The position numbers were made by a program, and so were the translations under genes. A stretch of 11,367 nt of DNA from a virus (taxonomy: Duplodnaviria > Heunggongvirae > Uroviricota > Caudoviricetes), in IMG/VR virus record IMGVR_UViG_2718217897_000002. One strand, written 5' to 3'. Below are positions 1 through 11,367 of this stretch, piece after piece. Below the pieces are notes generated by a model, which saw only the letters and a program-made list of their open reading frames with translations, had not been told where the DNA came from and searched no databases. Position 1 is the stretch's first letter. Every line of letters begins with the position of its first letter.

Positions 1-192
1 TTAGTTGCTACGCGATTCGGCTATACGTTGATCGATCCAGTCATCGATCTCGCTTTCAATAAAAGCTATTGCGCGAGAACCAATCTTGACTGATTGGGGG
101 AATTGTCCTCGGCTCATCAGAGCATATACCCACGCCTTGCTATAGCCAGTGCGTTTCAAAACGTCAGATAGCCGAATCAGCGACTTTTTCAT
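1..192 (-). CDS. alpA: AlpA-family HTH regulator of prophages/integrative islands (excisionase-like), 63 aa
   Basis: Complete ORF (ATG at 192, TAA at 3-1). Small basic protein with the AlpA pattern (LIRLSDVLKRTGYSKAWVYALMSRGQFP...IAFIESEIDDWI). Lies beside an integrase fragment, as in P4/CP4-57-type islands. Family assigned from recalled homology. Confidence 0.75.
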   Translation of the reverse strand: MKKSLIRLSDVLKRTGYSKAWVYALMSRGQFPQSVKIGSRAIAFIESEIDDWIDQRIAESRSN

Positions 193-293
193 ATCTACCT
201 CGTAATACGTTGCTTGACTATGTGAGATAGTAAATCATTGTTTTTTTAAGTTTTCTGTGAATTTGGAGAAAAAGTTTTCGGGAAAGGAATTGT

Positions 294-335
294 CCCAAAT
301 TGGGCGTTTGTTTTCGTCTCTCCAGCCAATTTGGG
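294..335. promoter_or_regulatory. Pair of near-palindromic boxes CCCAAATTGGG (294-304) and CCAATTTGGG (326-335) upstream of alpA; candidate operator
   Basis: Seen directly: the two boxes are reverse complements of each other, each nearly self-palindromic, about 21 bp apart, in the 156-bp gap between the orf246 stop and the alpA start. Confidence 0.25.
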
Positions 336-348
336 AACATCAATTATT

Positions 349-1089
349 TTACTTGGTTATCTTTCCCAAAAAATTGGGTGCGTGCCGCTGCAAAGTCTTT
401 TTTAGAAGCGTTCTTAGATTATCCATGGTCATGCCAGCATCATTGTATTCTTCACTGTACTTTGCGATGTTGTTTGCTGCTTTCTCGCACACCGCGGACT
501 GGTTGAGCTTTCCATTCTTTCTAACGTCCTCGCTGGATTCATATAAAGCAATCGCCAGCCCAGCAATCATTTTCCAGGCGGTGTTTTTGCCGCGCCAGTC
601 ACTGGGGAGCGACCCACTTTCTGTTTCCTCTGCTATCGGTTCATCAATGTTGTGATCTTCCAGTTCTGGGAAGAAGCTCACAAGCTCGGACCGCTTGAAA
701 TAAAACGAATCGTAAGACCCATACCAATCATCCTCATCATCGTGATATAAAAAGTCTTCTCCTTTCCTAACGTTGAAAGTCCCTTCTTCCCCCGGTATCG
801 GGCTCTCCCTGTATTCATGCCCCATAGCCAGAAGACCTAAAAACTCCACACACTGCTTTTCAAAGTCTTCATTAGTCGTAAAACCAGATACCCAATCGAA
901 CTGATAAAAGCCCAGCCCCCCTAAAGTATCTGGTTTAGTCTTGCTCAATCTGTAGTTACTTAAGATAGCGGCAGCTATCATTCTTTCATTTTCATTGTTT
1001 AGTCTTGCCAGTTCGCTGATCAGATTACCAAACCAGATTTTATCTTCTGACTCGTTATAAAACGCATCTAGTCCTGTCATCTTAGTCAC
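349..1089 (-). CDS. Hypothetical acidic protein, 246 aa, between the integrase fragment and alpA
   Basis: Long ORF with GTG start at 1089 preceded by SD GGAAGGAGA (6-nt spacer). Overlaps the integrase-fragment stop by 8 bp. No motif I recognise; Asp/Glu-rich central region. Confidence 0.6.
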   Translation of the reverse strand: MTKMTGLDAFYNESEDKIWFGNLISELARLNNENERMIAAAILSNYRLSKTKPDTLGGLGFYQFDWVSGFTTNEDFEKQCVEFLGLLAMGHEYRESPIPGEEGTFNVRKGEDFLYHDDEDDWYGSYDSFYFKRSELVSFFPELEDHNIDEPIAEETESGSLPSDWRGKNTAWKMIAGLAIALYESSEDVRKNGKLNQSAVCEKAANNIAKYSEEYNDAGMTMDNLRTLLKKTLQRHAPNFLGKITK

Positions 1090-1813
1090 GGCGTGTTCTC
1101 CTTCCGAACTCGTAAGGGCTTATGTGTATTTCTCGATTGGCGTCCAGATAATCTGCCCACCATTGAAGCATTAGTTTGCGCTCTTCTAAGTAATCAGCCT
1201 TGTGCTTGTAGGCTCTTTTAACGTCTTTATATTCTTTGTGGCTCATCTGGCGCTCTACTGCGTCCTCCTGCCACAAACCGGACTCCATCAGGGAACTACA
1301 GGCTGTGGCACGGAATCCATGTCCAGTTACGTCCTCTTGCGTGTTATAGCCCATTAAGCGTAATGCCTTGTTTACCGTGTTTTCACTCATCACGCCTTTG
1401 GTGTTTCTTTCATTCGGAAACACAACATCGTAGCTTCCGCTTAGTTCTCTCAACTGCTTTACAATAGAAACAGCCTGACGGCTAAGAAGCACGATATGTT
1501 CGTCTTTTCCCGTCTTTGTGCCACGGGTGGAAAACCTCACACCATCGATAGGCTCTCTTTTTTTAGGGATAATCCACTCAGCCCGATCAAGGTCAAACTC
1601 TTTCCAACGGGCAAACCTTAACTCGCTTGAACGAACAAAGGTCAACATGGTTAGCTCAATGGCAAGGCGGGTAAGAGGATTACCTTTAAAGCTGCCCAAT
1701 CGAGTGAAAAAGTCTGGTAAATCTCTGGGATGTAGTGCGGCATGATGCTTAGTTTCATATTGCATTAGCCGATATTCCTCAGAGCTTGGAAGAATTGCTG
1801 ATGCATATGGCAC
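1082..1813 (-). pseudogene. 5'-truncated P4-type tyrosine integrase (C-terminal catalytic domain only, 243 codons)
   Basis: Translation aligns with the C-terminal half of P4-family integrases (HGFRATACS...KRAYKHKADYLEERKLMLQWWADYLD, parallel to the IntS C-terminus at 6680-7837). The frame is closed by a stop only 8 codons upstream of the first possible start (1838-1840), and no N-terminal arm/core-binding domain is encoded upstream in any frame. Confidence 0.7.
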
Positions 1814-1829
1814 TCTTGCAAGAGCAGCT

Positions 1830-2270
1830 GTGAAACCTCAGCAGTATATTGAAAGAACAGGGAGAACTGCCAATGTACTACGCGATCTTGATGCTGGTTT
1901 ATCCAACGTTACATCAACAGTGTTAAATGCAATTGCCAACTCAACATCAGGTGCCATTGTTGGTGGAGCAGGAGGCGGGGGCGTTGCTGGCGCTGCCGCA
2001 GGTGCTTTAATTGGCGCCGGGTTAAAAGGCGCTGTATCTAAAATTGCCACCACACGTAGTGGTCGGTATGCGATAGAGAAAGCAGTTCAGGAAGCAACTA
2101 AAGCAGTAAGAGCAGGCGGAAGCAAAGAAGCATTAGTGGCGGCTGAACGCAGATTTATGGCAAATAAAGCTGCCGTAAAAGCAATACGTGATACAGTCGG
2201 AAACGAAGAGTTCAATCGCTTAGCGAGGGCTGGCATTGTAGCGTCGCTAAGCGGAATAGCACAGGAGTAA
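1830..2270 (+). CDS. Gly/Ala-rich glycine-zipper protein (146 aa); possibly the 3' remnant of a larger gene
   Basis: ORF with GTG start at the deletion junction. Central segment AIVGGAGGGGVAGAAAGALIGAGLKGAV is a glycine-zipper-like hydrophobic stretch flanked by Ala/Lys/Arg-rich helices. More GC-rich than the neighbouring cassette. Minus-strand ORFs here are Pro/Ala-rich antisense artefacts. Function unknown. Confidence 0.4.
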   Translation: MKPQQYIERTGRTANVLRDLDAGLSNVTSTVLNAIANSTSGAIVGGAGGGGVAGAAAGALIGAGLKGAVSKIATTRSGRYAIEKAVQEATKAVRAGGSKEALVAAERRFMANKAAVKAIRDTVGNEEFNRLARAGIVASLSGIAQE

Positions 2271-2594
2271 TTAATCATCCATGGATGGATTGAGCTTATC
2301 TCGTGTTGATGTGGCGATTTGTCCTACATTTCTAAGCCAAGATTTCAAATCCTTGATATTGTCATTGATTTCATGAATATCTTCTTTTTTTAATCTGTTA
2401 ACATTATTTTCAATAATTTCAATGGATTGCTCAATATCAGATATAGTGAATGATAGTTTGTTCTTCTCATCTTTTATTGAGTTTTTAAGTGCTTCGTTCT
2501 CAGTCTTGAGGTCAGATATCTTTTGTTTTAAAGATGCCAGTTGGTACTGAACCACAATGAGTGCGATAGCTATCACGATAACTGTTGTATACAC
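2271..2594 (-). CDS. N-terminally membrane-anchored coiled-coil protein (about 107 aa)
   Basis: GTG at 2594 is preceded on the minus strand by a strong SD AAGGAGG (plus 2602-2608) with a 5-nt spacer. Product begins with a hydrophobic helix (YTTVIVIAIALIVVQY) followed by a heptad-like Lys/Glu/Asn-rich region. The longer ORF reaching 2810 would overlap the divergent gene and has no SD, so the short start is preferred. Confidence 0.5.
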   Translation of the reverse strand: MYTTVIVIAIALIVVQYQLASLKQKISDLKTENEALKNSIKDEKNKLSFTISDIEQSIEIIENNVNRLKKEDIHEINDNIKDLKSWLRNVGQIATSTRDKLNPSMDD

Positions 2595-2624
2595 ACCAAC
2601 CTCCTTAGTTTTGCGCAGGATACC

Positions 2625-2990
2625 ATGAAAAAAGTTAACATTGGAAACGTACCAAAGATGCTCGTTCCGCTCTTTGAGAGCGGTACAATTGTGTTTTGTA
2701 GAGACTTTCCAGAATGGCAACGCCTGCATCAAAAACTTGGCGTTGACGTGCATGACTCGGACGCCAACGGAGCGTCTCATACAATGAGTAGCGAGAATGG
2801 TGTTTTGCATGTGATAGGCGTGTTCAATGGCAAACTATCTACTATTGCCCATGAGTGCGCTCACATGGCATTCGATATCTGCTCAAGGGTAGGTGTTGAT
2901 GTTGAACCAGGAAGAGCCAACGAGACTTACTGCTACTTAATGAGCAGGCTTGTTGAGTTCTGCGAGCGACATATCAAAAAGCCGGAGTGA
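2625..2990 (+). CDS. Small HExxH-motif protein, possible minimal Zn-metallopeptidase (ImmA/IrrE-like motif), about 121 aa
   Basis: ATG at 2625 with AGGA at 2617-2620. Motif STIAHECAHMAFD (HECAH encoded at 2850-2864) with Glu 19 and 25 residues downstream. The ORF-track start at 2541 would overlap the divergent gene. Stop lies inside a hairpin (2979-2998). Fold and activity unverified. Confidence 0.5.
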   Translation: MKKVNIGNVPKMLVPLFESGTIVFCRDFPEWQRLHQKLGVDVHDSDANGASHTMSSENGVLHVIGVFNGKLSTIAHECAHMAFDICSRVGVDVEPGRANETYCYLMSRLVEFCERHIKKPE

Positions 2991-2998
2991 CCCGGCTT
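2979..2998. terminator. Hairpin between the convergent HExxH gene and the small basic protein gene; candidate bidirectional terminator
   Basis: Stem AAGCCGG (2979-2985) / CCGGCTT (2992-2998), 6-nt loop. On the minus strand it is followed at once by a T-run (plus 2971-2978 is an A-run); on the plus strand it is followed by T-rich GATTATTACTTTTT. Confidence 0.4.
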
Positions 2999-3003
2999 GA
3001 TTA

Positions 3004-3183
3004 TTACTTTTTGCTGTCTGGAGTTCGCTTATCTAATACCCAGCCATGACCTGGCTTTGTTGTTGGTGGAAGCCTTTCGTTGTCCTTGACGGTGGCAAAA
3101 TTGTCTTTCTTACCGCCGCGTGGGCCAACTTCTTGGTATATTCCGCCGTTTTTTCCTGTGTTTTCACCTGGTTTTTTCGCCAT
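3004..3183 (-). CDS. Small basic Gly/Lys/Pro-rich hydrophilic protein (about 59 aa)
   Basis: ATG at 3183 preceded by SD GAGGT (6-nt spacer). Product MAKKPGENTGKNGGIYQEVGPRGGKKDNFATVKDNERLPPTTKPGHGWVLDKRTPDSKK, no hydrophobic segment. It loosely recalls small uncharacterised YjzC-like proteins, but I cannot verify that. The overlapping plus ORF 3046-3240 is judged antisense. Confidence 0.5.
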   Translation of the reverse strand: MAKKPGENTGKNGGIYQEVGPRGGKKDNFATVKDNERLPPTTKPGHGWVLDKRTPDSKK

Positions 3184-3275
3184 GATATACCTCAACATAC
3201 ACCCGTTATTGGGCGATTAAATATTGATCTCATTTTATAAGTAGTCAATATGGCCCAGGTAAATGCAAAAATTAA

Positions 3276-3297
3276 CCCACCGTCAGGTGGTTTTTTT
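3276..3297 (+). terminator. Rho-independent terminator-like hairpin (CCACC-GTCA-GGTGG followed by T7)
   Basis: 5-bp GC-rich stem 3277-3281 / 3286-3290, tetraloop, seven T at 3291-3297. An A-run precedes it, so it could work in both directions. Confidence 0.5.
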
Positions 3298-3348
3298 GTA
3301 CAAATCCTTCAGCCAGTACATAACTACTGACAGATAACCAACGCAACG

Positions 3349-3372
3349 ATCCAGCTTCGGCTGGGTTTTTTT
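3349..3372 (+). terminator. Rho-independent terminator (stem with TTCG tetraloop followed by T7)
   Basis: Stem ATCCAGC (3349-3355) / GCTGGGT (3360-3366), TTCG loop, then T-run 3366-3372. Confidence 0.55.
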
Positions 3373-3561
3373 ATGCCCAAAATTCACCGTAGCCATGCTG
3401 CGGAGATTCCTTGTATCTGGAGCAAATTAAATGACAGATATTATAAATGGGAATTGTTATTTAATAATGTTTGAAAATAAAAATCATGGACGATAGGAAT
3501 AAAGGTATTACTTGTTTTTATTTTTGTAAGTGACGCATTAAGCGCATAAATAATATGCCTG

Positions 3562-3590
3562 TTGATCAAGATTCTTGAGTATTGTAAAAT
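3562..3590 (+). promoter_or_regulatory. Candidate sigma70 promoter for the tailspike operon
   Basis: TTGATC (3562-3567), 17-bp spacer, TAAAAT (3585-3590), in an AT-rich leader about 125 bp upstream of the tailspike start. Confidence 0.4.
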
Positions 3591-3714
3591 AATCGTTTTG
3601 TTCATGTTGCATGGTTTTTAAATGAATAGAAGGTTATTTTTCAAAACAATTGCATCTTTGTCTGCAGTCATTCCGTTTTCTTCAATATCTAAATCTTCAA
3701 ACAGGATGACTAAT

Positions 3715-6300
3715 ATGCCTGATATAACCCCAAATGTTGTGATAGGTATGCCATCGCAACTCTTCACAATGGCTAGCTCTTTTAAAACCGTAGCAAATGG
3801 AAAAATTTATATCGGTAAGATTGACACAGATCCGGTAAATCCAGAAAACCAGATTCCAGTATATCTGGAACGAGAAGATGGTACTTATGTTCAGGTGCCA
3901 CAGCCAATCGTTATCAATGCTGCTGGATACCCGGTATACAACGGACAGATTTCCAAATTCGTTACCGTGCAAGGCCATTCTATGGCTGTTTACGATGCAT
4001 ATGGTACGCAGCAGTTCTATTTTCCGAATGTGCTTAAGTACGATCCTGATCAATTAAGACAACAATTAGAAGACCCGGAAGGTGCTAAAAAATATCATGA
4101 ATTGCAGATGTCTCGGTGGCGTGATGACGCTGACCCTCGCGGATGGGGAGCAAAAGGTGATGGCATCACCGATGACACATTATCTTTTCAAGAGTTAGAA
4201 AAACAAATCACAGGAAGGATTGTTGATCTAAGGGGTAATACATATATAACAGATCAAGTTTATGATGGAAATAAGTATATAAATGGCTATTTTCGCACAG
4301 AGAATCGATTACTGCCAGATGCTGATTTTACTGAAAAAAGAATACAAACTATAAAAAAGGGGATGTATACAGGTTTCAGATCTTCTACTCCTAATCATGT
4401 TAAGTCAGGGTTGCGACTGGCAACAATTAAAAATACTGTCATACAAGGTGCTGTTCTTGATTATTATGACAGTGTTCTTTATTGCTTGGTAAATGTGAGT
4501 GGCAGCGTTAGTTCTGGTGATGAAGTTAATAAAGTTGTTGCTTATAATTGGTTTGGGAATGAAGAGTTAACTCCTCTTTGGGAGACTAAAGGTAGTAGAG
4601 AATTAGGACATCAATGTCTTGGTTTAACCATAGGGCGCGTTGGTTTTCGTAACACAAGAGGCCAGTTACAGATATGGGGGTTAGCTGGCACAACTAAAGG
4701 AGAGGATCGCGCAAAGTATATCACCAGATTCACCCCTACTGATGGTGGTGAAATTGAACCAGAGTTTTTTCTCATATGGGAAGATGGTTACGAGAATCAG
4801 GTAAATGTTTTATGCACCGACCCTATGAGTCGATGGCTGATTACTACAGCAAAACGTTATGTTGGCCCAGGTGAGAGCCCATCAACACCAGATCAAATTC
4901 GCTATTATGTAAAAGTATTTGATACCAGTAAATTTATTAACCCGCAGGCGTACAATTACGATTATCGTAATGAAGCAACTTTTGAATTTGAAATTGCTGA
5001 TTTTGTGAGGGATATGCAAACAGTTGCGTGTGACGGTACTGCTATTTATTTTTGTCAGGCTGGATCTGCATATTCTTCAACCAGAAAATATTTGCATCAG
5101 TACACACTTGATGGTGTTTATCTTGGGGTGCAGCAAATACAGGCAGGTGCAGGAAGAGCCTATGAAATAGCAGATCCAAATGATACCGGAACGCCAGATG
5201 TTAGCAATCTTACATATGAACCAGAAGCAATGTTTTTCCGTATGATTGCAGGTGGGTATGACCTTGTAATGGGGAATACAAATGGCATACCAGATGGTGA
5301 TAGTGGGCGAGAAACTACATTTTACACATTAATGCCACAACAGGTAATGCATGTAAAAACAACATCAAGAAATCAGCCTGGTATTATCATTGATTCAACC
5401 CATGATATTGTCACTAACTCTGGTTTGTTAAGCCTTGGTAAAATTATGCCTGGTGGTGAAGTCATAGAGCAGGCAAACCTTGATGACAAAGGATTCACTG
5501 TTTCGAGGGCAACAACACAAGCCGCCCGTTATGATGCAAAGAATACGTTACGGAATGTAACTTTTCATGTTAGTGAAAAAGGTGATACCGGTATTTATGA
5601 CTTTACCAATGCTCAATGGATATTTAAATCTCCCTTATCAACATCTTCATATTCGTATATCGGTCAGTCAGCGGAGGTTAATGGCTATATAAGTGCTAAT
5701 AAAGATAATACGTCATCATGTGGGACATCATCTAAACGGTGGACGCAAGTATATGCAACTAATGGGGCAATAAATACTTCAGACCAGACATTGAAAACAA
5801 AGCCACTGACAGTAGAGCAACTTTCAGAAATCATGGAGGTGGATCAGGATGCAATTCTTGACGCATGGGGTGACGTAAATATTATCGTTTACCAGTGGTT
5901 GTCCGATATTAAGGCTAAAGGTTCGGATACTGCTCGTTGGCATTTCGGAGCAATTGCACAGCAGGTAAGAGATGCGTTTCTTGCAAAGGGGATAGATGGA
6001 ACAAGATTTGGCTTGCTATGTCATGATAAATGGGATGATGAGTACCAACCTGTAATGGCACAGCGCAAGGTGTCATTTATAGCTAAATCCCCTGAAGGAG
6101 AAGACATCGTTCACGAATACTTTGAAGAATACGATACTGGTGACACGGAACTGGTTGTACATGCTGGTGAGCGTTGGGGATTGCGTCCAGATGAATGTTT
6201 GTGGTTGGAGGCTGCATTCCAGCGAAGAAGGTGTGAACGTATTGAATCTCGTTTAACAGAGCTTGAATTGATAATTAAAAAAGCAAAAGAGATAGAGTAG
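3715..6300 (+). CDS. Phage tailspike protein: P22/Sf6-type N-terminal head-binding domain, central beta-helix (pectate-lyase-like) receptor-binding/depolymerase domain, C-terminal intramolecular chaperone (peptidase S74-like) domain
   Basis: N-terminus [18 protein letters not shown]...[27 protein letters not shown]...[15 protein letters not shown]...NVLKYDPDQ closely matches the P22/Sf6 tailspike particle-binding domain as I recall it. [13 protein letters not shown] (4141-4179) is the usual start of a right-handed beta-helix. C-terminal SDQTLK...[12 protein letters not shown] resembles the auto-cleaving chaperone domain of endosialidase and T5 L-shaped fibres. Start chosen at the ATG with AGGA 8 nt upstream; the ORF stays open back to 3622, with 3706 as an alternative start. 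Confidence 0.9.
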
Positions 6301-6588
6301 ATGGATAAAACCCCAATTCATCACGCACTTTGCGCTGTGGTCGCACAGGTACTGGTTGGTCTTTTTACCGGAAACTGGGCTTACGGAGCGATAGCCGGTT
6401 GTACATTCTTCATCGCTCGTGAACATACCCAGGCAGAATATCGCTGGATTGAAATGTTCGGACATGGCAAGCGAATGAATATGCCGTGGTGGGGCGGTTT
6501 TGATCCGCGCGCTTGGGATGTGGCAAGCCTGATGGATTTTTCTTTCCCAATTATCGGATGCTTATTGGTATGGATTCTTGCATCGTAG
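6301..6588 (+). CDS. Small integral membrane protein (95 aa), co-transcribed with the tailspike gene; unknown function
   Basis: ATG at 6301 directly follows the tailspike TAG (6298-6300). Hydrophobic N-terminal segment (ALCAVVAQVLVGLFTGNWAYGAIAGCTFFIA) and C-terminal segment (FPIIGCLLVWILAS) with a Trp-rich loop between. Sits where P22-like phages carry O-antigen modification genes. Confidence 0.55.
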   Translation: MDKTPIHHALCAVVAQVLVGLFTGNWAYGAIAGCTFFIAREHTQAEYRWIEMFGHGKRMNMPWWGGFDPRAWDVASLMDFSFPIIGCLLVWILAS

Positions 6589-6622
6589 TTAACACAGAGT
6601 TACCTATGAGACAAAACTAAGG

Positions 6623-6659
6623 TACACAAAGCTTTGCACTGGATTGCAAGGCTTTGTGT
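6623..6659. terminator. Long imperfect hairpin (about 15 bp stem) between the convergent membrane-protein and integrase genes; candidate bidirectional terminator
   Basis: ACACAAAGC-T-TTGCA / 6-nt loop CTGGAT / TGCAA-G-GCTTTGTGT (6624-6659). On the minus strand it is followed by TTAGTTTTG. No clean T-run on the plus strand. Confidence 0.3.
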
Positions 6660-6679
6660 CATTCGATAGTTAAGGTGGA

Positions 6680-7837
6680 TCACTCCACCTTTTCATCAAG
6701 CCAATCCGCCCACCACTGCATCATTTCTCTGCGCTTATCGAGATACTGAGCGTGGTTGTAAATTCCACGCACAGAACCGCCGTTGGCATGTGCCAGTTGC
6801 ACTTCAATAGCATCAGCAGGCCATTCGTGCTCGTTCATAATCGTGCTGAATTCATGCCTGAATCCGTGACCGCTTTCCAGACCTTCATAGCCGATTTGTT
6901 TGATCACAAGCAATACCGCGTTCTCGCAGATTGGCTTCTTCTTATCGTTGCGCCCGGAAAAAACAAACTCTGATACTGGTTTAGTGATTGAGCTTAGTGT
7001 AGTGAGAAGTTCAACCACCTGGTCTGACATCGGGACAACATGAATTTTGCGTCCCTTCATCACACTGGCGTCGATGGTGATAATCCTGTTTTCAAAATCG
7101 ACGTTCTTCCATAGCATGGAACGAAGCTCTTTTGTTCTTAGGGCTGTGTAGCGTAAAATTTTGGTAGCAATGAGCGATACGATACTTCCTGAAAATGTTG
7201 CAAGTGCTTTGTTGAATGCCGGGATCTGGTCGGCAGGTAAAAATGGGAAGTTCTTCTTGCGGTATCCCTTCATGGCGTCAGCAAGGTCAGGTGCCGGGTT
7301 ATATTTAGCCCTTCCGGTGACAATAGCGTAACGGAAAACCTCGCCGCATCTTCTGCGGGCTTTGTTGGCTCGCTCCATTGCACCGCGATCTTCAAATCTG
7401 CGGATTACTTCCAGAAGTTGCATCGGCTCAATATCCTGAATTTCAAGGGCGCCGATGATAGGTAAAATGTCGTCATCAAACATTTTGGCAAGTTCATTTG
7501 CATAGCCTACTGACCAGACTTGCTTCTTGTGCTCGTACCATTCCTTGTAAATCGCACAAAAGGAATTGTTGTTAGACGAAGCCTTTTTCGCCTTTACCGG
7601 ATCGATGCCAACCGAGATGTCTTTCCTCGCAGTCCATGCTTTATCCCTTGCCTCCTGCAAAGTCATAAGCGGATATTTTCCGACGGTCAGGATTTTCTCC
7701 TTACCGTCAATCTTGTAGCGAAGCTGCCAGACCTTTTTTCCGGATACAGGGACATAAAGGTACAGGCCATTACCATCGAGAAGGCGGTATGGTTTTTCTT
7801 TCGGCTTTGCTGCTTCAATCTGCTTAACGGTGAGCAT
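6680..7837 (-). CDS. intS: P4-type tyrosine integrase, IntS-like (385 aa)
   Basis: Translation from the internal ATG (MLTVKQIEAAKPKEKPYRLLDGNGLYLYVPVSGKK...) through ...HAQYLDKRREMMQWWADWLDEKVE matches prophage integrase IntS as I recall it. Gene starts 161 bp downstream of the argW 3' end in the same orientation, the classic tRNA-int arrangement. The ORF track extends 12 codons further to a GTG at 7873. Confidence 0.9.
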   Translation of the reverse strand: MLTVKQIEAAKPKEKPYRLLDGNGLYLYVPVSGKKVWQLRYKIDGKEKILTVGKYPLMTLQEARDKAWTARKDISVGIDPVKAKKASSNNNSFCAIYKEWYEHKKQVWSVGYANELAKMFDDDILPIIGALEIQDIEPMQLLEVIRRFEDRGAMERANKARRRCGEVFRYAIVTGRAKYNPAPDLADAMKGYRKKNFPFLPADQIPAFNKALATFSGSIVSLIATKILRYTALRTKELRSMLWKNVDFENRIITIDASVMKGRKIHVVPMSDQVVELLTTLSSITKPVSEFVFSGRNDKKKPICENAVLLVIKQIGYEGLESGHGFRHEFSTIMNEHEWPADAIEVQLAHANGGSVRGIYNHAQYLDKRREMMQWWADWLDEKVE

Positions 7838-7998: not shown

Positions 7999-8073
7999 TG
8001 GTGTCCCCTGCAGGAATCGAACCTGCAATTAGCCCTTAGGAGGGGCTCGTTATATCCATTTAACTAAGAGGAC
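7999..8073 (-). tRNA. argW: tRNA-Arg (anticodon CCU)
   Basis: Minus-strand 75-nt sequence GTCCTCTTAGTTAAATGGATATAACGAGCCCCTCCTAAGGGCTAATTGCAGGTTCGATTCCTGCAGGGGACACCA folds as a cloverleaf: 7-bp acceptor stem, D stem GTTA/TAAC, anticodon stem AGCCC/GGGCT with loop CTCCTAA (anticodon CCT), T stem GCAGG/CCTGC with loop TTCGATT, encoded CCA. Confidence 0.9.
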
Positions 8074-8084
8074 AATGCGGCATG

Positions 8085-8113
8085 AGTATACCCGCTAATG
8101 GAGTGCGGGGTAA
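8085..8113 (-). promoter_or_regulatory. Candidate argW promoter
   Basis: On the minus strand: TTACCC (plus 8108-8113), 17-bp spacer, TATACT (plus 8085-8090), then a GC-rich discriminator (CATGCCGC) typical of stable-RNA promoters, 11 nt before the mature tRNA 5' end. Confidence 0.35.
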
Positions 8114-8148
8114 GTACGCTGCCGCTCGATTGCTTAAACCCTCGCCAT

Positions 8149-9081
8149 TTATGCCGGGTTTTTATAATTTTTCTTAATGTTTTCCGCACGTTCTGCTTTT
8201 TGGCGTGCTTCTGCTTTACGCTTATTGCTCATGTCGTTACGAATCTGTGCATGACTCATTAACGCGAAGATAAAGGTGCCGCCGCAGATGTTCCCCGCTA
8301 AAGTAGGTAGTGCGAAGGGCCAGATGAAATCGCTCCAGTGCAGCGTGCCGTTAAACACCAGATAGAGGATTTCAACAGAACCGACCACGATATGGGTGGT
8401 GTCACCCAGGGCAATAAGCCAGGTCATCAATATAATCACCACAATCTTTGCCGCACCCGCTGCAGGAAACATCCAAACCATAGTGGCGATCAGCCAGCCG
8501 GAAATGATCGCGTTGGCAAACATCTCGCTGGGGGTGTTCTTCATCACATCCATGCCGATTTTGACAAATGCATCGCGAGTTTCTTCATTGAAGATAGGCA
8601 TATATTCAAATGCCCACGCCGCAATACCTGTCCCGAGAATATTACCCAGCAGCACGACGCCCCATAACCGTATAAGTAAGCCGACGTTGCTCATTGTCGG
8701 TTTTTGCATGACGGGTAGTACCGCAGTCACGGTATTTTCGGTAAATAATTGCTGGCGGGCCATAATGACGATAATAAAACCAAAGGTATAACCGAGATTC
8801 TCCAGCAAGAAGCTGCCCGGCACACCTTCCAGTTCGACATGAAATATCCCTTTTGCCAGTAACGAAGCGCCCATCGACAGACCCGCCGCAATGGCTGACC
8901 ACAGTAGCGCCATTGCGTCGCGTTCCAGCTCTTTTTCACCATCCTGGCGGATATGCTCATGAATTGCCATCGCCCGGGAGGGGAGTCGGTCTTCATCTAT
9001 TTCTATTTTTTTGCCGCGCTCTTTTTCTTCGCTCTCAACTTCAATTTCGTCGCTGTGTTGATCAATTTTGTCGTTGTCCAT
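8149..9081 (-). CDS. yfdC: Formate/nitrite transporter (FNT) family inner-membrane protein YfdC, 310 aa
   Basis: Acidic N-terminal tail followed by multiple hydrophobic helices. Sequence and position (between argW and mlaA) match E. coli YfdC as I recall it. Confidence 0.85.
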   Translation of the reverse strand: MDNDKIDQHSDEIEVESEEKERGKKIEIDEDRLPSRAMAIHEHIRQDGEKELERDAMALLWSAIAAGLSMGASLLAKGIFHVELEGVPGSFLLENLGYTFGFIIVIMARQQLFTENTVTAVLPVMQKPTMSNVGLLIRLWGVVLLGNILGTGIAAWAFEYMPIFNEETRDAFVKIGMDVMKNTPSEMFANAIISGWLIATMVWMFPAAGAAKIVVIILMTWLIALGDTTHIVVGSVEILYLVFNGTLHWSDFIWPFALPTLAGNICGGTFIFALMSHAQIRNDMSNKRKAEARQKAERAENIKKNYKNPA

Positions 9082-9262
9082 GGTCTCTTCTCTTGAATTA
9101 GCACGTATAGCTAAAGCGTAGCGGCTTTTTTGCTCGCAACTGACGGGAGTTACTCTGAAAATGTAGAAAAGGCTGCGTTTGCCTTTTTCTGTTTCTATAA
9201 AATCAAGTAGCCTACAGGGCGGCGATTACCAGGCTATGATCAAATCAGCAAATCAGGGCGTC

Positions 9263-9290
9263 TGGACATCAGTTGACGTGCTGTTACAAT
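9263..9290 (+). promoter_or_regulatory. Candidate sigma70 promoter for mlaA with extended -10
   Basis: TGGACA (9263-9268), 16-bp spacer, TGtTACAAT (TG at 9282-9283, hexamer 9285-9290), about 85 bp upstream of the mlaA ATG. Confidence 0.35.
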
Positions 9291-9374
9291 CGCCCACACC
9301 TAAACAGGCGGATACGGTATCGTTCCGTCATGGATGGCAAACTGCATAAGCCATAAAAAAACAGGGAGACATTT

Positions 9375-10130
9375 ATGAAGCTTCGCCTGTCGGCGCTTGC
9401 TCTGGGAACTACGCTTCTGGTGGGGTGTGCGAGTTCCGGTACAGATCAGCAAGGGCGTTCTGACCCGTTAGAAGGGTTCAACCGCACCATGTACAACTTC
9501 AACTTCAATGTATTAGACCCGTATATTGTTCGACCGGTCGCTGTCGCCTGGCGTGATTATGTTCCGCAACCGGCGCGTAACGGTTTGAGCAACTTTACTG
9601 GCAACCTTGAAGAACCTGCGGTGATGGTTAACTACTTCTTGCAGGGCGACCCTTATCAGGGGATGGTCCACTTTACCCGCTTTTTCCTGAACACCATTTT
9701 GGGGATGGGCGGTTTTATTGATGTTGCAGGGATGGCGAACCCGAAACTGCAACGGACTGAACCTCACCGCTTCGGTAGTACGCTTGGTCATTATGGCGTG
9801 GGTTATGGGCCTTACGTCCAGTTACCGTTCTACGGTAGCTTCACGCTGCGTGATGACGGTGGTGATATGGCGGATGGTCTTTACCCGGTTCTTTCCTGGC
9901 TGACCTGGCCGATGTCTGTGGGTAAATGGACGCTTGAAGGGATAGAAACTCGTGCGCAGTTGTTGGATTCCGATGGTCTGCTGCGTCAGTCGTCCGATCC
10001 TTATATTATGGTGCGCGAAGCGTACTTCCAGCGTCATGATTTCATCGCTAATGGCGGCGAACTCAAACCGCAGGAAAATCCGAACGCACAAGCGATTCAG
10101 GATGATTTAAAAGATATTGATTCTGAATAA
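9375..10130 (+). CDS. mlaA: Outer-membrane lipoprotein MlaA (VacJ), phospholipid-asymmetry maintenance, 251 aa
   Basis: SD GGGAGA 6 nt before the ATG. Signal peptide with lipobox LLVGC. Sequence matches MlaA/VacJ as I recall it. Confidence 0.9.
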   Translation: MKLRLSALALGTTLLVGCASSGTDQQGRSDPLEGFNRTMYNFNFNVLDPYIVRPVAVAWRDYVPQPARNGLSNFTGNLEEPAVMVNYFLQGDPYQGMVHFTRFFLNTILGMGGFIDVAGMANPKLQRTEPHRFGSTLGHYGVGYGPYVQLPFYGSFTLRDDGGDMADGLYPVLSWLTWPMSVGKWTLEGIETRAQLLDSDGLLRQSSDPYIMVREAYFQRHDFIANGGELKPQENPNAQAIQDDLKDIDSE

Positions 10131-10144
10131 GAAACAAATAAAAA

Positions 10145-10172
10145 AGGTGAGTCGCAAAACTCACCTTTTTTG
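10145..10172. terminator. Bidirectional rho-independent terminator after mlaA and the convergent interrupted gene
   Basis: AAAAA-AGGTGAGT-cgcaaa-ACTCACCT-TTTTTTG: 8-bp stem 10145-10152 / 10159-10166, flanked by an A-run upstream and a T-run downstream. Confidence 0.6.
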
Positions 10173-10311
10173 TTGTTATCCCTCAATTACCACAAGTAAA
10201 AGGAGATAAACCGACAATGACCCGGACGTAATGATGTAAAAATACTGATGTTCGTCACTGACTATTTCCGATATTCAGGCGTTGAAAAATCAAAAAACTG
10301 GAAAAATAATT

Positions 10312-10614
10312 TTAAATATCATCAAAATTAACACCTGGCGCAGATAGTTGATTAATTTCATTTTGATATTTCGCCTGGCGATTTTGAAGTCTTTTTTCAA
10401 CGTTATCTTCGAGATCCTTAAAGTCTTTGTATTTATTTTCAGGATGGTCAACGTCAACTTTGTTAGCGAATAAATTAGAAATTATTTCTTTTACATTATC
10501 GCGTCTAAATTTTGCATCGTCCACTTGAAAATCATATCTTATTGCTCGACCATAACGTTTAAAAACGTCGTTTGGTTCTCTCAGTCTTTCCCCGTTGAGC
10601 TCGTTTACAACCTG
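10312..10614 (-). pseudogene. 3' fragment of a gene interrupted by IS1 (position matches yfdF of E. coli K-12; identity unverified)
   Basis: The minus-strand frame is open from the IS1 left end (10614) to the stop at 10312-10314 (101 codons), with the only upstream stop lying inside the IS1 inverted repeat. The ORF-track start at 10524 is an internal GTG. Lys/Asn/Asp-rich, AT-rich coding sequence. Confidence 0.5.
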
Positions 10615-10669
10615 GGTGATGCTGCCAACTTACTGATTTAGTGTATGATGGTGTTTTTGAGGTGCTCCA

Positions 10670-10945
10670 GTGGCTTCTGTTTCTATCAGCTGTCCCTCCT
10701 GTTCAGCTACTGACGGGGTGGTGCGTAACGGCAAAAGCACCGCCGGACATCAGCGCTATCTCTGCTCTCACTGCCGTAAAACATGGCAACTGCAGTTCAC
10801 TTACACCGCTTCTCAACCCGGTACGCACCAGAAAATCATTGATATGGCCATGAATGGCGTTGGATGCCGGGCAACTGCCCGCATTATGGGCGTTGGCCTC
10901 AACACGATTTTACGTCACTTAAAAAACTCAGGCCGCAGTCGGTAA
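10670..10945 (+). CDS. insA: IS1 InsA (transposition repressor / N-terminal part of the InsAB' transposase), 91 aa
   Basis: GTG start. Product contains the zinc-finger CPSC...CSHC and matches IS1 InsA. Confidence 0.9.
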
Positions 10946-11367
10946 CCTCGCGCATACAGCCGGGCAGTGACGTCATCGTCTGCGCGGAAATGGACGAACA
11001 GTGGGGCTATGTCGGGGCTAAATCGCGCCAGCGCTGGCTGTTTTACGCGTATGACAGGCTCCGGAAGACGGTTGTTGCGCACGTATTCGGTGAACGCACT
11101 ATGGCGACGCTGGGGCGTCTTATGAGCCTGCTGTCACCCTTTGACGTGGTGATATGGATGACGGATGGCTGGCCGCTGTATGAATCCCGCCTGAAGGGAA
11201 AGCTGCACGTAATCAGCAAGCGATATACGCAGCGAATTGAGCGGCATAACCTGAATCTGAGGCAGCACCTGGCACGGCTGGGACGGAAGTCGCTGTCGTT
11301 CTCAAAATCGGTGGAGCTGCATGACAAAGTCATCGGGCATTATCTGAACATAAAACACTATCAATAA
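10864..11367 (+). CDS. insB: IS1 InsB reading frame (catalytic part of the InsAB' transposase made by -1 frameshifting), 167 aa
   Basis: Product matches IS1 InsB. Frame is -1 relative to insA and overlaps its 3' end. The stop codon is the last three bases of the window. Confidence 0.9.
10921..10927 (+). other. IS1 programmed -1 ribosomal frameshift motif (A6C)
   Basis: AAAAAAC lies in the insA/insB overlap, where IS1 is known to shift frame to make InsAB'. Confidence 0.6.

Follow-up and report, generated by a model that had tools for sequence, protein, structure and literature searches.

We describe here the argW locus of an Escherichia coli strain, contained in an 11,367-nucleotide stretch of DNA (IMG/VR virus record IMGVR_UViG_2718217897_000002; the whole stretch is called the window), in which the remnant of a P22-like prophage has been joined by a deletion to a genomic island with a P4-type integrase. 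The junction lies at 1763-1767, inside the island integrase gene, and its island-side endpoint is a TA dinucleotide, nt 602-603 of that gene, at which eight different junctions cross. The island-side endpoint is not random, and its recurrence suggests that the DNA was cut at a specific site. Because this endpoint is a recurrent, nucleotide-precise hot spot, the deletion was probably no random accident. Taken as one joint claim, the deletion history and the existence of a site-specific hot spot are in our judgment very likely to be right; the identity of the enzyme lies outside that estimate. What the data show outright are the sequences of the two parents, the junction to the base, and tandem arrays that are still intact in other genomes.

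Parental sequences and the exact junction

A reading of the DNA made without database searches (the sequence-only reading) had proposed that two elements integrated at argW and that a deletion then ran from the prophage into the island integrase; every stage of this history has a living example. Intact versions of both elements, which it had suggested looking for at related argW loci, were found as the island of strain AST19, the P22-like prophage of strain 19KM2326N and tandem arrays of the two. The window was compared by megablast with 5,426 complete E. coli genomes, none of which contains the whole arrangement; in AST19, E100341 and EC0026B, window 1-1771 directly adjoins window 7999-11367 at 99.9% identity, the IS1 insertion included. 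The AST19 island occupies ~8.1 kb between dsdC and argW and carries a 428-aa integrase directly beside argW, together with orf246, an AlpA-like gene, small open reading frames (ORFs), a replication gene, an HNH gene and a serine recombinase gene. Window 1-1771 corresponds to positions 6001-7771 of this locus (L001) with one mismatch (99.94%). The full island integrase gene lies at L001:7082-8368 and encodes Arm-DNA-bind_3 (residues 9-96), Phage_int_M (106-196) and Phage_integrase (233-392) domains. The repeated argW 3' segment that the sequence-only reading had proposed to seek in the flanks is present in this intact relative as a 23-nt (26-nt) repeat at L001:420 and L001:8533, and the AST19 island is flanked by it in the manner of a tRNA-targeting island. 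Within the window the segment occurs once even when three mismatches are allowed, which agrees with the reading; of the two argW repeats of the window island, the proximal was lost in the deletion and the distal is beyond the limits of the window.

On the phage side, window 1763-3299 matches L003:12001-13533, from the P22-like prophage at argW of 19KM2326N, at 98.3% identity, and the junction falls in the interior of a 703-aa "DNA transfer protein" coding sequence (L003:10394-12505). The gp16-like fragment is in frame from 1764 (the frame was checked), and identical 146-aa products on other contigs carry a precomputed match to Pfam PF26808, Phage_P22_gp16. A three-way alignment of the window, L001 and L003 gives the junction base by base as ...TTGCATTA/ACCGG in the island, ...AGCCATTA/GCCGA in the phage and ...TTGCATTAGCCGA in the window. 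Island homology extends over 1-1771 and phage homology begins at 1763; the two overlap in CATTA (+ strand, 1763-1767), the TA at 1766-1767 being the recurrent crossover dinucleotide, and there is no insertion sequence (IS), filler or inserted DNA. The microhomology is thus 5 bp, or 9 bp with one mismatch. The junction had been placed at 1813-1830 in the sequence-only reading, and its actual position lies inside the ORF that the reading took for the truncated integrase. Two further independent metagenome contigs from different samples, L013 and L022, carry the same junction sequence, and the window junction is therefore not a chance feature.

These alignments redraw the two genes on either side of the junction. 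The 3' remnant of the island integrase occupies 1082-1767 (- strand; gene nt 602-1287, Met202-Asp428 plus stop), is 99.94% identical to L001:7082-7767 and retains the catalytic domain only. The mechanical ORF 1082-1813 (243 aa), which had been taken as integrase throughout, is integrase as far as 1767; its first 16 codons (1768-1813, - strand) are the antisense of the phage gp16-like gene by alignment and translation. The ORF matches PF00589 alone (63.7 bits, profile positions 24-170) and is without the arm-binding (PF13356) and core-binding (PF22022) domains, both of which are present in the AST19 allele; the window copy is a remnant and not a functional member of the P4-type family. VRSSELR, HGFRAT and a C-terminal Tyr-containing segment are seen in its translation, and on our own reading they supply the conserved Arg, His-x-x-Arg and Tyr of the catalytic domain. 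The N-terminal truncation recognized from the sequence is real, and the loss amounts to 201 of 428 residues (47%), not to the third that had been estimated. A stop 8 codons upstream of the GTG is seen in the translation, as reported, and no N-terminal coding sequence, which would have spoken for a sequencing error, was found upstream. The possibility that the short integrase is a natural variant had also been raised; 222 of the 237 complete genomes with this integrase cover at least 80% of a query spanning the gene, and the short form is therefore not its normal state. Gene callers working on identical contigs start the remnant at ATG 1765, giving a 227-aa product, and an exact look-up found this form on record and not the 243-aa GTG-start ORF. 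Across the junction, 1764-2270 (+ strand) is the 3' fragment (codons 536-703) of a gene for a P22 gp16-like DNA-transfer (ejection) protein whose 5' end has been deleted, 98.3% identical to L003:12001-12505. What had been described as a GC-richer gene starting at the junction, 1830-2270, belongs to this 3' end, and its difference in GC content is marginal (0.47-0.485 vs 0.45-0.47).

A recurrent TA crossover in the island integrase gene

A gene-position index was searched for the 227-aa product starting at ATG 1765, and the contigs recovered were mapped against the full-length gene. The product with its Met202 start is on record in 45 blocks of the index, with differing upstream neighbors. Six different junctions join foreign DNA to exactly TAATGCAATATG, the six upstream partners of the Met202-start contigs each being joined to TAATGCAAT. 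The partners are the gp16-like gene (window, L013 and L022), an ASCH-like early gene (L008), the intergenic region between a cI-like repressor gene and N (L009 and L014), a gp20-like gene (L015), the lysis region (L016 and L017, in which the retained integrase remnant is of an island allele 98.7% identical) and an early-left ORF (L028). Each of the six intact partners has a TA in register, and the blocks shared with the integrase gene (TAATG, TA, TAA, TA, TA and TA) all begin from the same T.

Two routes independent of the Met202 gene calls led to the same dinucleotide. An exact scan with the 28-mer to the right of the break found 14 of 14 occurrences intact in IMG/VR, and 11 intact plus two junctions in the metagenome collection; both of these junctions sit at the TA, and one of them, on contig L139, adds the portal gene as a seventh partner, again with TA in register. 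When the N-terminal 215 residues were used as a protein query, a 354-aa fusion came up in which integrase residues 1-201 run into the interior of orf246 at the same TA; its DNA reads CCGGT-TA-CCGGGG, and that of intact orf246 CCCGA-TA-CCGGGG. Since this fusion keeps the 5' half of the integrase gene, the same TA can be joined on either side, and because argW is free of any prophage in that strain, the reaction does not need phage enzymes. Upstream of its portal/TA junction, contig L139 (metagenome, 3x coverage) switches from the portal gene (reverse) to scaffold/capsid genes (forward). An inversion or a chimera assembled at low coverage would account for the switch, on which the TA junction itself does not depend.

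Eight different, independent junctions therefore cross at integrase nt 602-603, all of them deletions, seven keeping the 3' half of the gene and one the 5' half. The TA forms the second and third bases of Leu201, directly before Met202, at the boundary of the central and catalytic domains. The site, read as CCGGT/TA/ATGC, has the sequence CCGGTTAATGCAAT; in the intact gene CCGGT precedes TAATGCAATATGAAACTAAG and ATGCAAT follows GATGTCCGGTTA. The integrase gene contains 70 TA dinucleotides, and the chance that seven further events would fall at the same one is ~1e-13. Preferences on the partner side are weak (G at -2 in 5/8, A at -1 in 5/8, G at +3 in 6/8). The crossover is fixed, the partners have the same dinucleotide and share little else, and either side can be kept, which together argue for a site-specific cut with conservative rejoining and against a break with random repair. 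We propose that a site-specific enzyme would nick or cut the DNA at the TA, and that strand transfer would then link it to a TA elsewhere. Full-text literature searches on related terms returned no description of this recurrent nucleotide-precise crossover in the island integrase gene, which as far as we found is undescribed; we class it with illegitimate recombination anchored at the cleavage site of an enzyme, a kind of event already known.

Other truncations of the integrase lie elsewhere in the gene, and comprise IS insertions (e.g. at position 820 of the reference segment), a break at position 760 of that segment, a frameshift and an int172::rep fusion. Two N-terminal fragments (P0018 and P0019, one from a 94%-identical allele) end after ...SFKGNPL, at about residue 232, with different tails; breaks might recur at this point too, or it could be a target of IS elements. 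The 224-aa N-terminal "integrases" of Klebsiella, Salmonella and others (P0025, P0026, P0034, P0044 and ~20 more) were set aside as frameshifted CP4-57-like proteins unrelated to the hot spot; their equal length arises because all reach the same out-of-frame stop.

Tandem arrays and the history of the deletion

At related loci the repeat of the argW 3' end is 23 nt long for the island and 15 nt for the IntS prophage, and the two elements therefore use the same core. The tandem joint predicted from this arrangement (5' end of the island integrase, spacer, core, torI end of the phage) was built and searched, and it is contiguous in at least 20 complete genomes (e.g. L006 and L007), the order of the array being island integrase, att, torI, prophage, intS, argW. 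In SCEC020023 an apparently complete lambdoid prophage of ~41 kb lies between a full-length island integrase and intS/argW. The tandem array of GPEC1292 (L006:15622-17028) has an internal prophage deletion that joins partial ral to a DNA-ejection gene and leaves the island integrase intact; a similar ral/gp16 arrangement is seen in L008, in addition to the hot-spot deletion there. NCTC9064 (L002:6004-7372) shows the reverse order, a frameshifted intS, the 23-nt argW repeat and the island preceding argW; here the island was inserted between argW and an older IntS prophage remnant, from which it follows that either element can arrive second. A search of the complete genomes for the window junction and five other types returned parent-like tandem states only (H139 and H140).

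In the history that we propose for the window strain, an ~8-kb island with its P4-type integrase, orf246, AlpA gene, small ORFs, HUH Rep, cargo and serine recombinase would have been resident first beside argW. A P22-like phage with an IntS/TorI module would then have integrated at the argW att core, between argW and the island. This order is favored because the island is nearly identical to that of the AST19 lineage and the prophage sits beside the intact tRNA gene. A single deletion, ~34 kb by comparison with intact relatives, would have removed the torI end, the early, lysis and head genes as far as gp16 codon 535, the middle att site, a 164-nt spacer and integrase nt 1-601. The outcome is a 6.2-kb prophage stump (gp16', small genes, tailspike, the 95-aa ORF and intS) joined to an island whose integrase no longer works. 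Judged from the sequence, excision should be closed to both parts: to the prophage stump because torI and attR are lost, and to the island because its proximal att site is missing and its integrase is left with neither the arm-binding nor the core-binding domain.

Candidate agents and alternative explanations

Our candidate for the most likely agent, put forward tentatively, is a putative HUH Rep/relaxase-like protein of the island. HUH enzymes nick one strand, remain on the 5' end and can join it to pseudo-sites, giving deletions with a fixed endpoint. On this proposal the Rep would form a covalent 5' intermediate at the TA that would be joined to pseudo-sites. The island Rep (350 aa) has HVHAII (HUH) and YMAK motifs in its translation, matches PF23343 (REP_ORF2-G2P) at 29.7 bits against a cut-off of 27.8 and resembles PF03432 Relaxase (MobA/VirD2-like) weakly (E = 0.006); it has no relative in the PDB by sequence. 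In L001, L002 and L006, RefSeq annotates rep as a 215-aa "replication protein" although a 350-codon frame with the HUH motif is open, so that the annotated start conceals its catalytic domain (the 215-aa entries reflect annotation starts only). The rep gene is intact in every island examined, so comparing its integrity with integrase status is uninformative. Close integrase homologues occur only in E. albertii and one Citrobacter, with Rep/orf246 matches among the scanned loci only at the Citrobacter locus L030, and integrases of 58% identity are accompanied by neither Rep nor orf246; co-variation of the site with Rep in distant relatives was considered and dropped on these grounds.

A more specific proposition, which we regard as speculative and doubtful, is that Leu201/Met202 of the island integrase is a cis-acting cleavage or strand-transfer site used by the island HUH Rep or serine recombinase against the neighboring prophage. 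If this is true, the enzyme would repeatedly join the site to a phage TA, deleting early and morphogenetic genes and welding the remnant to the island. Prophages would in this way be inactivated, and elements fused, by a site-specific mechanism that could be one kind of conflict among mobile elements, at the cost of the island's own mobility.

Several points weigh against our account of the locus. The eight junctions occur in none of the 5,426 complete E. coli genomes, all of them coming from short-read or metagenome assemblies; several junction types recur in multiple independent samples, and a shared sequence of 2-5 bp cannot mislead an assembler. Two of the three routes by which junctions were found needed TAATGCAAT or the Met202 start, so a crossover shifted rightward from the TA by a few bases would have escaped them. 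The size of the deletion and the order of arrival are ones that we infer and did not observe. As to the HUH protein, a second copy of the site was sought in the island and not found: a single 10-nt match lies in AST19-specific cargo and is probably due to chance, and there is none in L008. There is no significant hairpin at the site (z = -0.6 and -1.0), and a small stem 5' of it varies between alleles at one stem base. The signs of a cognate nick site at the TA are indirect and consist of the fixed crossover with TA in all partners.

The explanation implicit in the sequence-only reading, a one-off random illegitimate deletion from CATTA to CATTA at an unremarkable site, would account for the window taken by itself, since microhomology of 5 bp (9 with one mismatch) is typical of RecA-independent deletions and unrelated truncations of the same integrase exist elsewhere in the gene. 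It is highly improbable given that seven other partners use the same TA, six of them sharing only 2-3 bp, with p ~1e-13 among 70 TA dinucleotides. That the window is an assembly artefact, a chimera of the island with a prophage residing elsewhere in the genome, is scarcely credible: the joint shares 5 bp, far under any assembler overlap, the identical junction is present in L013 and L022 from different samples, and the prophage stump continues unbroken through intS into argW, yfdC and mlaA; these outweigh the absence of the junction from complete genomes and the presence in the close relative E100341 of the same tailspike region at another locus. A fixed point of replication arrest or a DNA end, produced by a bound protein or a Ter-like sequence, with a template switch or the joining of ends on 2-5 nt of terminal homology afterwards, would explain why the microhomology blocks all start at the same T and extend rightward (TA, TAA, TAATG), as a fixed annealing 3' end would give. 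It can also point to terB, which Bierne, Ehrlich and Michel reportedly found in 1991 to be a deletion hot spot, and to a match of 17/23 between the 23 nt from the break and TerE. Aligned to Ter sequences, however, the site has three mismatches in the 12-bp Ter core. That core is strictly conserved, and single changes weaken arrest (PMC8707476). The orientation would moreover predict retention of the integrase 5' side, the opposite of 7/8 junctions, and a Ter-like site was rejected on its core mismatches and this wrong polarity. The junction that does keep the 5' side at the same TA is hard to obtain from a one-sided end, and free ends are degraded in E. coli; we consider arrest quite improbable.

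Enzymatic exchange by a recombinase meets other difficulties. The island 208-aa resolvase/invertase, or another serine recombinase, could make a 2-bp staggered cut at the central TA and exchange strands with quasi-sites that have this central dinucleotide in common: most junctions show a crossover of exactly 2 bp, both partners need the TA in 8/8, either side can be retained, and the island does encode such an enzyme (Pfam Resolvase; PHROG "DNA invertase"). The 8 nt 5' of the TA, TGTCCGGT, together with the TA fit TGTCYNNNTA, a pattern that also occurs in repeats upstream of the recombinase gene and can be compared with resolvase half-sites. Yet dyad symmetry around the TA holds at 5/12 positions, which is chance level, so that the central TA stands without inverted half-sites and no dimer-binding site is visible; the partners agree in no more than the TA and weak preferences for G, every one of the eight events is a deletion though a palindromic TA should also permit inversions, and resolvases and invertases normally need accessory sites or an enhancer. 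We hold this enzyme to be an unlikely agent. A tyrosine recombinase (IntS with TorI, or the island integrase) might instead act at a secondary core-type site, performing the first strand exchange only, for which 2-3 bp of identity are needed, and leaving resolution to replication; some tyrosine recombinases do require 2 bp of homology. When the 10 nt 5' of the break, GATGTCCGGT, are set against the argW core GGTGTCCCCT, 8/10 positions agree and the agreement ends at the break, a figure that is borderline given the number of registers tried. GTCCG, a motif of TorI type, is found 2 nt 5' of the break (motif list in PMC2951348). None of the partner sites looks like a core site, 765 bp separate the site from the real att and put it beyond a plausible intasome, the island integrase would be expected to use a T-arm-type core (TGCAGG/CCTGCA) that does not occur here, and the int::orf246 junction arose in a strain without an IntS prophage at argW; we put the probability of a tyrosine recombinase as low as that of arrest. 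Some readings were rejected outright. Phage integration into a secondary site in the integrase gene fails because the partners are interior phage genes and not attP, and the orientation of the core-like sequence would set intS beside the integrase 3' half; IS-mediated deletion fails because no IS lies at any TA junction, and integron-type G/TT cleavage because no junction keeps the T that comes before the TA.

Three copies of a 13-17-nt motif, GTCTCAAT(A/T)GGGT(TGT), are found in the AST19 island at L001:1204-1340, upstream of the serine recombinase gene, two of them inverted and 54 nt apart and the third 42 nt further; these repeats could be a res site, an operator or an origin. The sequence ATTGTCTCAATAGGG is also reminiscent of IncW/IncN nic regions.

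Layout of the window

The sequence-only reading had recognized two P4-type integrase genes of the same orientation, with argW next to the complete one and island-type genes following the short one; the domain searches and ARAGORN agree, and both are tyrosine integrase genes on the - strand. At the left end, 1-192 (- strand) encodes a 63-aa AlpA-family helix-turn-helix protein of the island (Pfam PF05930, 65.6 bits; PHROG "excisionase and transcriptional regulator") and is collinear with L001:6001-6192. It is followed by orf246 (349-1089, - strand; from the ORF list), a conserved gene of the island to which no function is assigned; it overlaps the stop codon of the integrase gene, is present as a gene of 246-251 aa in all related islands examined and has no family match in Pfam, PHROGs or NCBIfam. 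In related islands the cargo slot between rep and the recombinase gene (L001, L002, L006, L007, L008, L010 and L112) differs by strain, and its defense-like genes encode an HNH endonuclease, ParA, a SIR2-family protein, a PIN-TPR-GreABC protein with HetE-N or a pair of proteins of 821-826 aa and 330 aa.

To the right of the junction, the gp16-like fragment is followed at 2271-3621 by small genes, which in this P22-like remnant take the place of the immI region; they run collinear with L003:12506-13533 (98.3% identity) and were called as genes on L013. The tailspike gene (3622-6300, + strand) encodes a P22-type head-binding domain (Pfam Head_binding, E = 4.5e-61) and a C-terminal S74 chaperone domain (Peptidase_S74); it has PDB matches to the N-domains of the Sf6 and P22 tailspikes and recurs at 99% identity in 13 complete genomes. 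In E100341 this tailspike region (99%) belongs to a prophage that resides at another locus. The head-binding domain, together with the gp16-like fragment collinear with L003, marks the remnant as a P22-like prophage of which the last 6.2 kb are left. Between the tailspike gene and intS lies a 95-aa ORF of unknown function (6301-6588, + strand; from the ORF list and called as a gene on L013), which has no Pfam match and occupies the slot where related phages have O-antigen-modifying genes (acyltransferase or gtr).

The complete prophage integrase gene, intS, is at 6680-7837 (- strand, 385 aa, of the KplE1/HK620/Sf6-type recombination module), beside argW as had been described; three Pfam domains (arm-binding, central and catalytic) are recognized, and the homologous position in many genomes is annotated "prophage integrase IntS". 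ARAGORN places argW, tRNA-Arg CCU, at 7999-8073 (- strand), its 3' end at 7999-8013/8021 being the att core common to both elements. The window thus holds the proximal part of the IntS/TorI module known from KplE1, HK620, Sf6 and CUS-3: intS adjoins argW and reads away from it, and the core TGGTGTCCCCTGCAG stands at 7999. Neither torI nor a second core copy (attR) is present in the window, where prophage homology stops inside the gp16-like gene; in intact relatives torI occupies the position lost from this prophage. To the right of argW come yfdC, mlaA and then yfdF, interrupted by an IS1 at 10615-11367 (+ strand; InsA/InsB ORFs) that is a marker of the lineage shared with AST19. The homology of most genomes ends at 10614, while AST19, E100341 and EC0026B continue to 11367; this IS1 in yfdF is common to those three strains and absent from most E. 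coli.

Significance and comparison with known systems

Taken alone, the fusion of the two elements is routine genome decay. It explains why the window strain carries a phage tailspike and integrase without a phage, and why both elements are immobile. The recurrent TA matters more, as a site where DNA repeatedly breaks and rejoins in natural populations, and recurrent sites of nucleotide precision usually mark the footprint of an enzyme, at a replication or transfer origin or a recombinase site. Should the enzyme be the island HUH protein, the site would locate the origin of a widespread mini-island carrying defense genes and would show how neighboring elements at a tRNA hot spot fuse and become fixed, and junction PCR from a fixed primer would provide a simple assay of illegitimate strand transfer in vivo.

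Deletions of this form have precedents at the nick sites of replication and transfer systems. Michel and Ehrlich reportedly described in 1986 deletions with an endpoint at the nick sites of the M13 and pC194 origins, and in TrwC-mediated oriT recombination the deletion endpoints fall at the relaxase nic site. The hot spot resembles these in having one endpoint fixed to the nucleotide, the other variable with few shared bases, and a HUH gene nearby; unlike them it lies inside an integrase gene, with no hairpin or second site found. The rolling-circle cases are plasmid deletions, whereas the hot-spot events are chromosomal and range from 1 to ~35 kb, the upper figure being inferred. A second parallel is recombination by the DNA invertase Cin at quasi-cix sites, which Iida and Hiestand-Nauer (1987) reportedly found to be chosen by their central dinucleotide. 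Here too the crossover is 2 bp, with an identical dinucleotide in partners that are otherwise poorly conserved, but the fixed site of the hot spot is without dyad symmetry, gives deletions only and has no evident natural partner or invertible segment.

[quoted passage not shown] It differs from them in its HUH-type replication protein and in the presence of a serine recombinase; Pfam, PHROGs and NCBIfam recognized no primase-helicase (pri-rep), capsid-redirection or packaging genes in it.

Tandem elements at a tRNA gene and prophage stumps are already well known, and the window fusion is an ordinary example of them; as in other tandem elements at one tRNA gene, the two here share one att core. 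The closest comparison is with KplE1 (CPS-53), the remnant at argW of E. coli K-12, which has in common with the window argW itself, the IntS/TorI module, an intS that reads away from the tRNA gene and the state of a stump. In KplE1 the 16-nt attachment core is duplicated and attL, attR, intS and torI, the last two forming its recombination module, are kept, so that it is still able to excise (PMC2951348). In the window, by contrast, the deletion has taken torI, attR and the middle att site and extends into the integrase gene of the neighboring element, leaving the two fused and immobilized.

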